From Octopus vulgaris (Eukaryota), in the NCBI GenBank assembly GCA_951406725.2, contig OX597815.1, positions 213,900,001 to 213,964,000 of the forward strand: DNA of 64,000 bases, given 5' to 3'. The position numbers were made by a program, and so were the translations under genes. Position 1 is the first letter of the stretch; every line of letters begins with the position of its first letter. Below the pieces are notes generated by a model, which saw only the letters and a program-made list of their open reading frames with translations, was not told where the DNA came from and ran no database searches. Positions 4,050 through 52,596 of this stretch are shown in pieces.

Positions 4050-4808
4050 AACGGTTTCAAATTTTGGCTCAAGGCCAGAAATTGAGGAATTATTCGATTA
4101 CATCGATCGCAGTACTTGCTTGATACTTTGTTTTATCGAATCTAAAAGGCTGAAAGAAAAATGCGACCTCGGCGGAATTTGAACTCAACATGTAAAGACC
4201 TGGAAGAAATGTCACTAAGCGTTTTTTCTCTAACACGCTAACGATTTTAATATTGATTTCAAATTTTGGCCCAAGGTCAACAATTTCAGGGAGAGCGTAA
4301 TACGATTACATCGACCGCAGTACAGCTGATACTTATTTGATCGACCCTGAAAAGATGAAATGCAAAGTCGACCTCGGCGGAATTTGAACTCAGAACGTAA
4401 AAACGGACGAACAATTCTCTTTTACTCTAGGCACAAGCCTTGAAATTTTTGGGAGGGTGGGCAGTCGATTAGATCGACCTCCAGTACACAACTGGTACTT
4501 AATTTGTCGACCCCGAAAGGATGAAAGGCAAAGTCGGCCTCAGCGGAACTTGAACTCAGAACGTAACGGCAGAAGAAATACCTATTTCTTTACTACCCAC
4601 AAGGGGCTAAACACAGAAGGGACAAACGAGGACAGACAAACGGATTAAGTCGATTATATCGACCCCAGTGCGTAACTGGTACTTTATTTATCGACCCCGA
4701 AAGGATAAAAGTCGACCTCGGTGGAATTTGAACTCAGAACGTAACGGCAGACGAAATACGGTTATGCATTTCGCCCGGCGTGCAAACGTTTCTGCCAGCT
4801 CGCTGCCC
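4050..4808 (-). mobile_element. Tandem chain of four tRNA-derived SINE units (SINE-A)
   Basis: Repeated core cgaccccgaaaggatgaaaggcaaagtcgacctcggcggaatttgaactcagaacgt containing the B-box (GAGTTCAAATTCC on minus). Different 3' tails, a single complete head ending near 4808. Core resembles the MetaSINE central domain (from recall). Confidence 0.9.
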
Positions 4809-4842: not shown

Positions 4843-5055
4843 TAGGCAAGCTGGCAGAATCGTTAGCATACTAGGTAGAATGCTTAGCGGCCTTTCGTAC
4901 GTCTTCACGTTCTGAGTTAAAATCCCGCTGAGGTCAGCTTTGCCTTTCATCCTTTTTGGGCCGATAAAATAAGTACCAGTTGAGTACTGGTGTCGCTGTA
5001 ATCGACTTACCCCCTCCATCAAACTTGCTGGCATTGTGCAAACATATGAAATCAA
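4843..5055 (+). mobile_element. SINE-A copy, head-to-head with the preceding chain
   Basis: ggcaagctggcagaatcgttagc head, gcctttcatcc core, gcattgtgcaaacatatgaaatc tail. Confidence 0.85.
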
Positions 5056-6809: not shown

Positions 6810-7558
6810 CTGACAGTTGTTAAGTACACTGAACAAAATGCTTGGTGGCATATCTTCCGCCCTTTCATGTTCTGAGTTTAAATGCAGTCGAAGTCAATTT
6901 TGTCCTTCATCATTTCAGGATCGACAAAATAAATACTAGTTGAGCACAAGGTCAAGGATATTCTTTCTAGTTTTGGCACAAGGCCAGTAGTTTTGAAGGG
7001 CGGAATCAAGTTGATTTCATCGACCCCAGTAATTAACTGTTAAGTATTTTATCGATCCTGAAAGGAGGAACAGCGAAGTTGACCTCGTCAGGAATTGAAC
7101 TCAGAGCAAAGAGAGTCGGAAAAGATATTGCAAAGCACTCAGTCCGACGCCCCAGCAATTCAGCTAGTTTATCTCCTTCAGCTCAATATTCCTTCTACTA
7201 TTGGCACAAAGCCTGAATGTTTGTGGGGTAGAGGGCTAATCGATTTCATCCACTCCAGTACATGAATGGTACTTATTTTATCGATCCCGAAAGGATGAAA
7301 GTCATAGTCGACCACGGTAGAATTTGGAAGAAAGCTGTATAATAATCCTTCCTACTCTAGGCACAAAGCCTGAAATTTTGGGGGAGAGGACAGTCGATTA
7401 CATCGACCCCACTGTTTCACTGGTACTTAATTTATCGACCCCGAATGGATGAAAGACAAAGTCGCCCTCGACGGAATTTGAACTCATAACATGAAGACGG
7501 ACGAAGTACCACTGATAATTTCGTCCAGCATGCTAACGATTCTGCCAGCTCACCGCCT
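6810..7558. mobile_element. Cluster of four SINE-A copies (one plus, three minus)
   Basis: Same core and tails as 4050-4808, more diverged. Confidence 0.8.
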
Positions 7559-33869: not shown

Positions 33870-34215
33870 CATGCGTATGGCTCAGTAATTAGAGCGGTGT
33901 GCACACAATCATGAGGTCATGAGTTCGATTCCCGAACCAGGTTGTGTTGTGTTCTGGGACAAGACACTTTATTTCACGTTGCTTCAGTTCACTCAGCTGT
34001 AGAAATGAGGTGCGACTGCACTGGTGCCAAGCTGTATCGGCCCCTTTGCCTTTTGTCTTGGATAACATCAGTGGCATGGAGAGAGGAGGCTGGTATGCGT
34101 AGGCAACTGCTGGTATTCCCTAAACAACCCCTTGCCCGGACTTGTGCTTTGGAGGGGAACTTTCTCGATGGAACCCCTTGACCAGTCATAATCGAAGGGA
34201 GTCTTTACTCTTTAC
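33870..34215 (+). mobile_element. tRNA-derived SINE (another family)
   Basis: A-box tggctcagtaatt, B-box gagttcgattccc, caagacactttatttcacgttgc core, (TTTACTC)n tail. Confidence 0.75.
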
Positions 34216-34233
34216 TCATATTGAACAAATATT

Positions 34234-34836
34234 CTTTTCTACTCTAGACACAAGTCCCAAAATTTGGAGGGAGGGGGCCAGTCGATGCGATCGACCCCAG
34301 TACGCAAGTGGTTCTTAATTTATCGACCCCGAAGGATGAAAAGCAAAGTCGACCTCGGCAGAATTTGAACTCAGAACATGAAGACAGGCAAAATACCTAT
34401 TTCTTTACTACCCACAAGGGGCTAAACACAGAGGGGACAAACAAGGACAAACAAACGGATTAAGTCGATTACATCGACCCCAGTGCGTAACTGGTACTTA
34501 ATTTATCGACCCCGAAAGGATGACAGGCAAAGTCGACCTCGGTGGAATTTGAACTCAGAACGTAACGGCAGACGAAATACCGCTAAGTATTTCACCCGGC
34601 GTACTAACGTTTCTTATTTCTTTACTGCCCACAAGGGGTTACACAGAGAGGGGAGAAACAAGGACAGACAAAGGGATTCGGTCGATTATATAGACCCCAG
34701 CGCGTAACTGGCTCTTATTTAATCGACATAAAAGGCAAAGTCGACCTCGGTGGAATTTGAACTCAGAACGGAGCGGCAGACGAAATACTGTTAAGCGTTT
34801 CGCTCAGCGTGCTAACCACTCTGCCAGCTCGCCGCC
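34234..34836 (-). mobile_element. SINE-A trimer inside one 15-bp target-site duplication
   Basis: TSD tattgaacaaatatt at 34219-34233 and 34842-34856. Internal junctions at 34397|34398 and 34614|34615. Confidence 0.9.
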
Positions 34837-36179
34837 TTCTTTATTGAACAAATATTAATGCAGACATGACACCTATTGGGAAAGTTATTGACAGGCAGAC
34901 AAATGCTATGCACTTATTAAACCATGTACATGAAGAGATTATAAAAAATAAGGGTTATAAAAGCATTAGGCATAAAAGTAAAGTTGAGATACATTTCAAA
35001 AATATGAGCCCAAAAATTCAATAAAATAACCAGTTGTATTAAACGCTTCAGAACTGCGAGATGTGCAAAGGTATGGCTTTGCGAGTTTAGTGTTACATAT
35101 TGCATTGTATATAGGCAACGCTACGGGGGCTTAGAATTCAAAAACTCATTGCATCAAATAATACACAATCTATTTTTCATTCCTTCTTTTTGAAATTTTT
35201 ATTCTATTATATTTACATATTTTTATATTAACTTGTCTCAAGTTGTATTCAATGCTTTATATATGTGTGTCCGTATATGTATGTGAAAGTGTGTGCGTGC
35301 ACCGCACGCACACACACTCACACATACACACACATACACACACACATACGATGTACTTCTTTCAGTTTTCGTCTACCAAATCCACTAATACGGTTTGTCC
35401 AAAGTGCCACGCAGTAGGACTGAAAGCCAGAACCATGCAATTTGGAAGCAAAATCCTCACCACATAGCCACGCCTGCGCTTACATAAACACATATACGCA
35501 CACACATATAAACGCATATATGCGCACCTGCGTACGTGTGTGTGAAAGCTAGTGAGTGTACACACACACACACACATTCATATAACTGTACATATAATTA
35601 TATAATTATACAAAATATGTCTCTATTCTTTAATTTGAAATATTCCAAATTACTGTTAATTTCATTCATGTTTCTAGGTTATTGATCCTGACTTGAAATT
35701 TAATTCATAATTAAAAATCGAAACATAACAATGACTATCGATTTGAATGTCTATTTCCACGTTAGTATCCAATAAATATTAATAAATCGATTACAATTGG
35801 TAGTTTCTTTATATTCAGCTTACTTTTCGAGTTAGCTTTATATATTCTCATATTTTAGACCCTCTTTTTGTCTTTAAAACTTTTTCACCATGAAATTAAA
35901 CCCCTTCATATTGCGTATGTTTATGGTTTATACGGTTTTAGTTATTCCTCATGTCGTGTGTTGCTGGTCTTTATCACAGGATGATGGATTATGCTGTTTT
36001 GCTACAAGAACTAATTCAGCATTTTTCCCCAGATAGAGTATAGCTAAGGATACTCTGTGAAATGTGTCCTTCACCCATTTAATTATAAGGTTTGATTAGA
36101 AAATGATACGTCAATTACATTTTTGCTGTTTGAGCAACTCTCTCGTAGTCTCTTAAGTATGGTTCCATACATTTATTTA

Positions 36180-50029: not shown

Positions 50030-51313
50030 TATATAGATATATGTGTATGTATGTATGTATGTATGTATGTATGTATGTATGTATGTATGTATGTATGTAT
50101 GTATGTATGTATGTATGTATGTATGTATGTATGTATGTATGTATGAGTGGGGGCGCGCGTTTTATGCGTGCATTTATGTATATACGTGTAAGTGTATCAG
50201 TATTAGTACAAGGTCTTCGTGGGAGAGATCGTAAATCAAGTTTTAAAAGAACCGGGAAAGGTGTGGGCGAGCAATTTAATCGAGCGTTGCATTCACTATA
50301 AACTGGTAAGTAGCTCGATGGTTAGGAGCGGCGGAAATATATTCCTTCAAGAGTGCATTTAAGGAATTCAATTTGCTACTAGGGCATATACTTTGATATG
50401 ACTATAAAAGTACTCCTTTTTTATATCCGATAAACGGGAAAAAATATTTAAAATATTTAGATTGTTCCCAATTTTAATGCAGTAAAAATTAATGTCATAT
50501 TTAAATCAATTTCCTTCAAAGCAGTTTGTAGAACAATTAAATGAAAATAAAATAAAATTCCAGAATTTCGAAGTTGTCCTTTCGCAAGTAACTTGATACG
50601 CCATTGCAACAAAACTTAAGGCGTGATTGTAGTAGATGTTTGTCTGTATTTCGTATTTAAGGGACCAATCCCTTTCGTAGGTCATATTTGTTTTGTGGAA
50701 GGATTTCACAATCAATAGAAAGTCAGAGTAAAAAGTTATAGACGGATGTTTTACATTTCTGTTTTTAGATTTTGTCGAATGTTTTTTTTGTTGCCGTCTA
50801 ACCTTGCTATATCGATGAGTAACAATACTGAACAAAAATTGATTCACTAAACTATTCATTTAAACATTATTTATAAATTATATTACGAAGATAAAAAGTA
50901 TGTTTGCTTGACGTTTCACTCCGTGTCAATTCAGATAGTGTGTTTTTATTTTTTAATTTTTGAAAACTACTCTCGATTACAAACAAAAATCGCTATGGTT
51001 TTCTAACCATAACGTTTTGAAAGACTTTACAATGACATGTATCTTATCAAGTTTGGTTAATAAGATAGATGTTCAGCATTGTCATATAAATATTCTCACA
51101 CTCAAATAGTCTCGTGTGAGGACATTATAAAAATGTCTTTGTATATAAATCAGAGCTTTACACAGAATCATCTTTTATTTTGGGGAGAATCTGTCTTTAA
51201 CAATTCTATGACATTTCTTGACATTATAAGTAGAGTTGTCAGAAACTATTGAAAATATATTGTTCTCTTTAGTAATAGTATCTGTACTAAATTGTTTCAT
51301 TCAATCCTCGATT

Positions 51314-51723
51314 CATTTACCACCCACAAGGGGCTAAACACAGAGGGGACAAACAAGGACAGACAAACGGATTAAGTCGATTACATCGACCCCAGTGCGT
51401 AACTGATACTTAATTTATCGACCCCGAAAGGATGAAAGGCAAAGTTGACCTCGGCGGAATTTGAACTCACAACGTAACGGCAGACGAAATACCTATTTCT
51501 TTATTACCCACAAGGGGCTAAACACAGATAGGACAAACAAGCACAGACATAGGTATTAAGTCGATTACATCGACCCCAGTGCGTAACTGGTACTTAGTTT
51601 ATCGACCCCGAAAGGATGAAAGGCAAAGTCGACCTCGGCGGAATTTGAACTCAGAACGTAACGCAGACGAAATACGGCCACGCATTTCGCCCGGCGTGCT
51701 AACGTCTCTGCCAGCTCGCCGTC
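51314..51723 (-). mobile_element. SINE-A dimer inside one 15-bp TSD
   Basis: TSD attcaatcctc(g/c)att at 51299-51313 and 51726-51740, junction gaaatacc|tatttc at 51493|51494. Confidence 0.9.
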
Positions 51724-52596
51724 TTATTCAATCCTCCATTAAACGTATTGACAATTTAAACTCATACAATAATACACATTACATTATTTTCCTTCAAACA
51801 TACTTGATCAGGCAGCTTGTTATTCTTTGATACATAAAGAAAAACATGTAACCATTTAAAAAAAAATGCGGCCACATCTTTGTCACAACAGTCAGTCTAT
51901 TTTTCGTACAACGATCAAGTATTTTGTTATTTGTATTATATTTATATAATTGGTTCACTTGTTTTCGTCATTTTGTCTACACTAGAAAGTATATTTTTTC
52001 CATCTCATACTGCTAGCATGATTACTTATTTAATTTATTAAAATTATCAGCCAATTGTTCTTTTAAACAGAAGATATAAAAACTACAGAAGTACGGTATG
52101 TACAGATTCAAGTCTGAAAAATAAATAAATACTTTCTATTTAGCTCTCAGGATTTATGGTTAGAAGTTGTTTTGTTTCTTTTTTCTCTAACTGTAGCGAG
52201 AAAAATAAAAGTGTAGCCTATATATCATTTAACCGACAACTCTCGCGTACTTTTACCATTTACAGTGCATAATTAACATTATCGTTAATCGATTAGAAAA
52301 TCTCCCATGTTCACACGAAACAGATAACCAGACAGGAAGAAGAAGAAGTGGATAATTTGGCGAAATGCCAAAACTGAAGATTTCTATTTTCTCTTTTGTC
52401 TTCATTCAAATTGTTTATTGCAACGACAATTGAACAAAGTAAGAAAAATGTATTTTCTGCAAAGTTTAATCAATAAATAAACTAATGGAAGAATAATATC
52501 TCTTTTGTATACGTTGTACGGATATTTATAAGTTATGGTCAAAGAACGGATAATGTTAGTTCAACTGAAATTGCGTACACACACACGCAAGCGCAT

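Follow-up and report, generated by a model that had tools for sequence, protein, structure and literature searches.

Crocodilian SINEU elements and Tx1-Mar LINEs prefer common sites in a Mariner element (Kojima 2015, PMC4494074). In the part of that paper drawn on here, a SINE and LINEs of the Tx1 clade use one repeat site, sequential insertion gives rise to tandem SINEs and site preference varies among LINE families, all of which resembles the octopus repeat described below. There, however, the insertions go into a third element, Mariner-N4_AMi, and a target site duplication (TSD) lies between the tandem SINEU-3 copies. The octopus SINE instead targets the head of its own group, and most of its chains retain a single head.

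Another parallel is R2, which uses a restriction-like endonuclease. In the sections of PMC11371274 used here, the 3′ tail anneals to the nicked target and 5′ junctions are mostly seamless via annealing of the cDNA, as we propose for octopus, although that work concerns an rDNA target and engineered templates. Our system would instead combine an APE-type LINE and a natural SINE acting on a dispersed repeat, with annealing deduced.

Squamate SINE-derived satellites and jerboa Dip/B1 multimers have been ascribed to unequal recombination, insertion at the same locus being mentioned in passing in the part of the article used here (Vassetzky 2023, PMC10702118). Like the octopus chains, the squamate satellites have sub-SINE tandem units with one longer terminal unit, and longer arrays are more uniform; the jerboa multimers differ in having full-length units. 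Unlike either, the octopus chains have a heteromeric seed dimer that arises by targeted insertion. The octopus SINEs OK, OR1 and OR2, as presented in portions of PMC4758252 and PMC4824008, also have a tRNA-like head and family-specific tails, and are likened to ours by description only. In the available part of PMC13282606, a 2026 octopus repeat annotation, the words 'nested' and 'target' are absent, and we found no description of a SINE that targets its own head in the open-access main texts searched.

The octopus system appears to be a new form of Tx1-type target-specific insertion. We consider it probable that A-type SINEs insert at position 48 of older copies by means of L1/Tx1-type LINE enzymes, and that annealing then leaves one mosaic head. 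The system makes the passage from dispersed SINEs to tandem arrays countable, a connection called poorly evidenced in the portion of PMC10702118 used here, and it provides tens of thousands of natural records of non-LTR 5′-end joining, the least understood step. By aiming at its own family an element may be following a safe-harbour strategy. Chains of this kind also distort repeat annotation and age estimates, since units of differing age lie at a single locus.

Three chains in the window

The window is the whole stretch of octopus DNA that was analysed, 64,000 nucleotides in length. An earlier note on it had reported one identical junction at three distant loci, and this was recovered on re-analysis. 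A junction 16-mer has three exact matches in the window, all on the minus strand (4576-4591, 34391-34406 and 51487-51502), against 0.19 expected from 100 shuffles, and at all three an A-type tail meets the same base, head position 48 of a 231-nt SINE consensus built from fetched copies.

At locus 1 the units lie on the minus strand. A young A-type unit with the sole complete head (consensus 1-231; 4583-4807) is joined, at the first copy of the site-48 junction (4576-4591), to a B-type unit that starts at head position 48 (4414-4582) and is the presumed recipient. The bounds given earlier were too short, as two older C-type units come after the B unit: the first begins near head position 53, so that the B tail adjoins a mid-head position (4257-4411), and the second begins near position 17 and adjoins the preceding C tail (4053-4246). 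No enclosing TSD was detected at this locus, the longest words common to the flanks being 4-7 nt.

Locus 2, also on the minus strand, contains an A-type unit with a complete head and a CAG tail variant (34615-34836), an A-type unit from head position 15 (34398-34614) and a B-type unit from position 48 (34231-34397). The second site that had been proposed at 34614|34615 is thus an A-type tail meeting head position 15. Locus 3 consists of an A-type unit with a complete head (51494-51724) followed by another from head position 48 (51316-51493), again on the minus strand. Both loci had been described as enclosed by 15-bp TSDs. The duplication is exact at locus 2 (plus strand, 34219-34233 on the tail side and 34842-34856 on the head side), but at locus 3 the 15-bp copies (plus strand, 51299-51313 on the tail side and 51726-51740 on the head side) differ by one mismatch, leaving 11 bp exact. 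A single complete head per chain and the lack of an internal TSD held on re-parsing. The incoming tail, which had been called constant, is A-type at both sites, but its variant differs between sites 48 and 15.

No contig from the sequencing runs at loci 2 and 3 spans a chain, and paralogues swamp the matches; at locus 3 both flanks run into SINE ends in two sequencing runs, which is uninformative on the number of units. Other repeats lie nearby. An older plus-strand SINE (4851-5051) stands head to head with locus 1 at a distance of about 40 bp, three older minus-strand B/C units are clustered at 6964-7557, the middle one beginning at position 78, and a different high-copy repeat with very high read depth lies just to the left of locus 2 (33900-34180).

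A high-copy SINE with a preferred junction

The repeat is a short, non-coding, dispersed, high-copy SINE flanked by TSDs, which were present in 21 of 42 A monomers and in 0 of 60 null cases. Its three tail families have a common head and core: A is young, B comprises young B1 and older B2, and C is old. ARAGORN and Rfam gave no match for the head; box-like motifs near head 11-21 and 74-84 match what we take to be the Pol III A and B box consensus. A junction 19-mer has 41,082 exact copies in the 2.8-Gb genome (0 for the reversed control), which also contains 6,083 adjacent junction pairs, 117,733 exact copies of an A-tail 21-mer and 3,288 copies of the site-15 junction.

A blind sample of 100 stretches of 10 kb (1 Mb) was parsed. 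In it 20 of 57 A-tailed units run into head 45-55, where chance predicts 0.0008 per insertion. The earlier note had proposed to tally junction position along the head as a check on targeting; 20 of the 21 blind junctions below an A tail fall at head 48-53 (14 at 48, five at 49-50 and one at 53) and one is at 17. Junctions below B or C tails in this sample are mostly ordinary head-to-tail neighbours, and a B tail at site 48 has, in absolute number, three genome matches. A copies in unique DNA are common, with 28 monomers versus 15 chains in the blind sample.

The remaining loci were chosen by sequence pattern, mostly from the start of contig C1, and their class proportions therefore do not stand for those of the genome. 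In the 106 parsed site-48 chains the last unit is A in 53, B in 46, C in five and unclassified in two, and many marker combinations occur across the chains. Read depth over the A tail and junction, relative to the core, was lower in organism E (X12 versus X1, X4 and X7), a weak hint of a lineage-biased A burst.

Two-headed loci and insertion into existing copies

Insertion at a fixed site of pre-existing SINE heads had been suggested from the window, and loci that keep both heads bear it out: since they carry a 15-17 bp duplication starting at position 48, young A copies insert into existing genomic SINE copies. The last units of chains are also the older ones, as described below. Five of the 106 parsed site-48 chains were flagged for an old upstream head; three have a duplication that spans 48 to about 63, a fourth lacks it at the join and the fifth is doubtful. 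At L147, which was parsed as a monomer, a variant of the recipient itself is present in both copies of an exact 13-bp duplication. Across the genome, a pattern of head 48-62 running into a new head matches 76 times and a core control 5 times. Thirty matches to this pattern, from 28 loci, were fetched; 21 resume at 48 after the A unit and nine do not. Among those that resume, 13 lie below an old head and eight within the junction of an existing chain, and a spacer of 16 bp with a 2-nt leader is the most frequent (10/21). The old head in two-headed loci is 16.7% diverged versus 3.6% for the new one. Such loci make up about 4-5 of 107 chains, and about 95% of chains have a single head.

Tandem arrays of heads only, with a period of 64-66 bp, were also observed (G000:C10:17996023-17996504, C14:84691111-84691409, C11:19231499 and C20:48572634), the two longest giving 8 and 5 matches. 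They are likely to be expansions of a two-headed intermediate. At L301 an A tail is joined to head 15-28 and then to a complete new head, possibly a two-headed intermediate at site 15.

Ages of the units within a chain

The last unit is usually the more diverged. This holds for 29 of 30 A-C chains (12.1 vs 4.4% for the first unit), 18 of 22 A-B1 dimers (7.4 vs 3.9%) and 24 of 32 A-A dimers (5.3 vs 3.5%, p=1.4e-4), the A-A difference reaching only p=0.1 in a first pass on the core alone with CpG sites excluded. Mismatch between TSD copies, a survivor-biased clock, did not separate the classes (9.9% for A monomers, 12.6% for A-C chains and 12.0% for C monomers).

The two units of a dimer are also largely unrelated. 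No rare variant is common to both units in 68 of 73 dimers, which led us to reject rolling-circle copying of one RNA as the source of dimers. None of 1,302 dimer pairs shares at least two rare variants in both units, and 30 C units have little in common, the largest Jaccard index among 435 pairs being 0.26. The repeat is not a true Alu-like dimeric SINE whose two units are amplified together.

The alternative raised in the earlier note, a fixed multimeric master, here taken as one or a few copies that gave rise to all chains, would account for the identical junction and draws something from the existence of read-through RNA. It could also explain why the 125/128 marker is concordant between units in 24 of 32 A-A dimers (p=0.012), a coupling that exceeds the prediction of random targets. 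Yet the last units come from families A, B and C and differ in age from the first, and the many marker combinations form no clades. The earlier note had named a single clade with equal inner and outer divergence as the mark of a simple dimeric master, and neither is seen. Older last units together with the lack of dimer clades make a fixed multimer master unlikely, and we give this reading almost no credence.

A candidate partner LINE

A partner element had been postulated, and we found a LINE family that lands at the same base, 48. At L327 a broken 4-kb LINE lies between two copies of head 48-63, inside a chain junction. Its pieces match RVT_1 (E=1.5e-11) and Exo_endo_phos (E=6e-5, slightly short of the curated cut-off), and its ORF2 is 49-59% identical to the intact 1149-aa ORF2 of an abundant young LINE. 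The latter has endonuclease, RT and zf-RVT domains, and among solved proteins it is closest to human L1 ORF2p (E=8.5e-54). Judged by these domains, the partner appears to carry an APE endonuclease and a reverse transcriptase of L1/Tx1 type; the label Tx1, rather than L1, is our assumption.

Relatives of L327 were sought with its 3′ 679 bases, which hold no SINE head, and 40 of 1,415 candidates were scored. Among the best 20 after L327 itself, some of which may be non-autonomous, 18 end at position 48, one ends at 50 and one is without a tail, and their recipients are varied. An exact pattern of the family tail has five matches, three of them at site 48. A 5′ TSD copy was seen for L327 only. 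The partner LINE thus appears to use one fixed position in a repeat and to generate a TSD there.

The tail of the L327 family is identical to that of SINE A in 38 of 48 columns, and the tail of a second, microsatellite-flanked family, the abundant young LINE above, in 38 of 50. Both are unlike the B and C tails, and the alignments score 50 versus shuffle maxima of 26 and 24, so that SINE A has its 3′ tail in common with a LINE. As two LINE families have equally similar tails, similarity of the tail is not enough to single out the partner. It is because of the common site that we regard the L327 family, in which L327 itself is broken, as the likely partner and source of enzymes.

Two other candidates were rejected: the microsatellite-flanked LINE (L094, L326), whose tail has 0 matches at site 48, and a CR1-like ORF in L163, which lies on the opposite strand to its tail-like match. 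At L326:616-6092 lies a young LINE of L1/Tx1 type that is very abundant; microsatellites terminate the copies seen, one copy directly follows the tail of another, and among 150 matches listed dozens lie in open frames of 1,130-1,178 aa.

These loci bear on the idea that chains form in a single insertion, with the reverse transcriptase first copying one SINE RNA, stalling at a hairpin that ends at 48 and then switching to an A RNA at its 3′ end, or with the RNAs ligated beforehand. One TSD, one head, no internal TSD and unrelated units would all follow, and in the consensus head a hairpin loop is predicted to end just before position 48. However, such a jump accounts neither for the two-headed loci, in which the TSD covers 48-63, nor for the 4-kb LINE with 48-63 on either side, and it predicts units of equal age, contrary to the divergence data. 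We consider it very improbable.

Fate of the second head

Insertion into a head should leave two heads, and the composition of the survivor suggests that the new head merges with the old one and largely replaces it. The heads of A-C chains (n=29) are A-like at positions 3, 6, 30, 48 and 59-63; being A-like at most markers, they show that the old head is mostly gone. Traces of it are nevertheless found. The old allele at position 19 occurs in 14 of 29 A-C heads, compared with 7 of 43 A monomers (p=0.007) and 30 of 32 C monomers, and that at position 36, a CpG site, in 10 of 28 A-C heads (p=0.04). Divergence at 11-20 is raised in A-C heads (15.2% vs 6.6%), their recipients having been chosen by an exact C tail and possibly differing from average C copies. 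In several chains a diverged 5′ tip is in register with a young head. Head divergence does not follow the last unit (r=0.14, p=0.2) and slightly follows the first.

The steps that we envisage are as follows. The LINE endonuclease would nick the bottom strand near 47|48, and the top strand would be cut near 63|64. SINE A RNA would be mobilised in trans by the L327 LINE family, perhaps with the help of read-through RNA that matches the target at its 3′ end. We lean towards the view that the full-length cDNA anneals to the old head and that the young sequence then prevails for the most part; this would resolve the duplicated head to one mosaic head. The part of PMC11371274 used here describes a comparable outcome for R2, with seamless junctions from 3′ and 5′ annealing and a minority that duplicate the homology. 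The earlier note had the cDNA joined by homology to the old head. A merger by homology fits our reading, but what survives is for the most part the incoming head. Since the junction rebuilds the target, chains stay open to further insertion, and once units adjoin, local duplication would also expand the chain.

Self-targeting could instead be rare and yield only the two-headed loci, single-head chains arising later by retroposition of read-through RNA or by collapse of tandem heads. Heads would then be mostly young, as is seen, and older last units are predicted here as well; read-through copies with their own TSD exist (L029 and L094), and tandem heads do recombine, giving the head-only arrays of 5 and 8 copies. 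Against this, each of the few two-headed loci would need many offspring, and the absence of dimer pairs with common private variants in both units and the low similarity among C units are not what such offspring should show. The old alleles at position 19 and the divergence at 11-20 are likewise unexpected for transcripts that start at a young head. This course of events strikes us as unlikely, and direct insertion followed by annealing is the reading that we retain.

Choice of the insertion site

The A tail has TAG or TAA before TAAAGAAATA at 20 of 22 blind-sample junctions at site 48, and a CAA or CAG tail variant in 27 of 30 fetched cases at site 15. The two sites thus go with different variants of the tail. 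Of 21 A TSDs in unique DNA, seven begin with GGT in both copies, which means that the site-48 preference acts loosely outside SINEs too. That the GGTATTT following A tails is purely RNA-derived was rejected, as both copies of the TSD include it at insertions into unique DNA; GGT within both TSD copies shows the choice of target, not its cause.

L029 and L094 are TSD-flanked A copies with 29 and 26 nt, respectively, of a second unit, and both extensions stop just before the B-box-like motif. They indicate that read-through RNA exists and is mobilised, and such RNA could pair with the target. The site could be chosen by the endonuclease or by RNA pairing, and the data fit both. Sites 48 and 15 lie at the edges of predicted hairpin loops (44-47 and 15-20 of the A consensus), although the hairpin at the site is not predicted for one older copy (z=0.59). 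The junction itself is a short inverted repeat resembling the stem of the head.

These elements may be parts of one loop, which we offer tentatively. SINE and LINE copies resident at site 48 would give read-through RNAs that pair by their 3′ ends with the next target, the SINE would supply landing sites for its own LINE so that the loop reinforces itself, 5′ annealing would renew old promoters, and a tail variant would have switched to site 15. If true, this would be a natural RNA-aided system of seamless gene conversion in which old SINE promoters become young again and tens of thousands of satellites are seeded.

Growth of longer chains

Most parsed chains (73/106) have two units. Among the 33 with at least three, the rare variants common to different units number two or more in 11 chains, one in 10 and zero in 12, the null for such sharing being <0.03 per pair. 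Sharing of at least two rare variants implies local duplication, and these counts point to local duplication having enlarged at least a third of the longer chains. In middle units the first part often comes from the last unit and the remainder from the first unit. Variant sharing and mosaic middle units together indicate that local duplication and repeated insertion both add units. Growth of arrays by re-insertion, as first suggested from the window, hence explains part of the lengthening, but the 11 chains above indicate duplication in place. A few chains attain 6-7 units with variants in common. At G000:C1:4676275-4677962, about ten units of 185 bp with a common variant form a small SINE-derived satellite.
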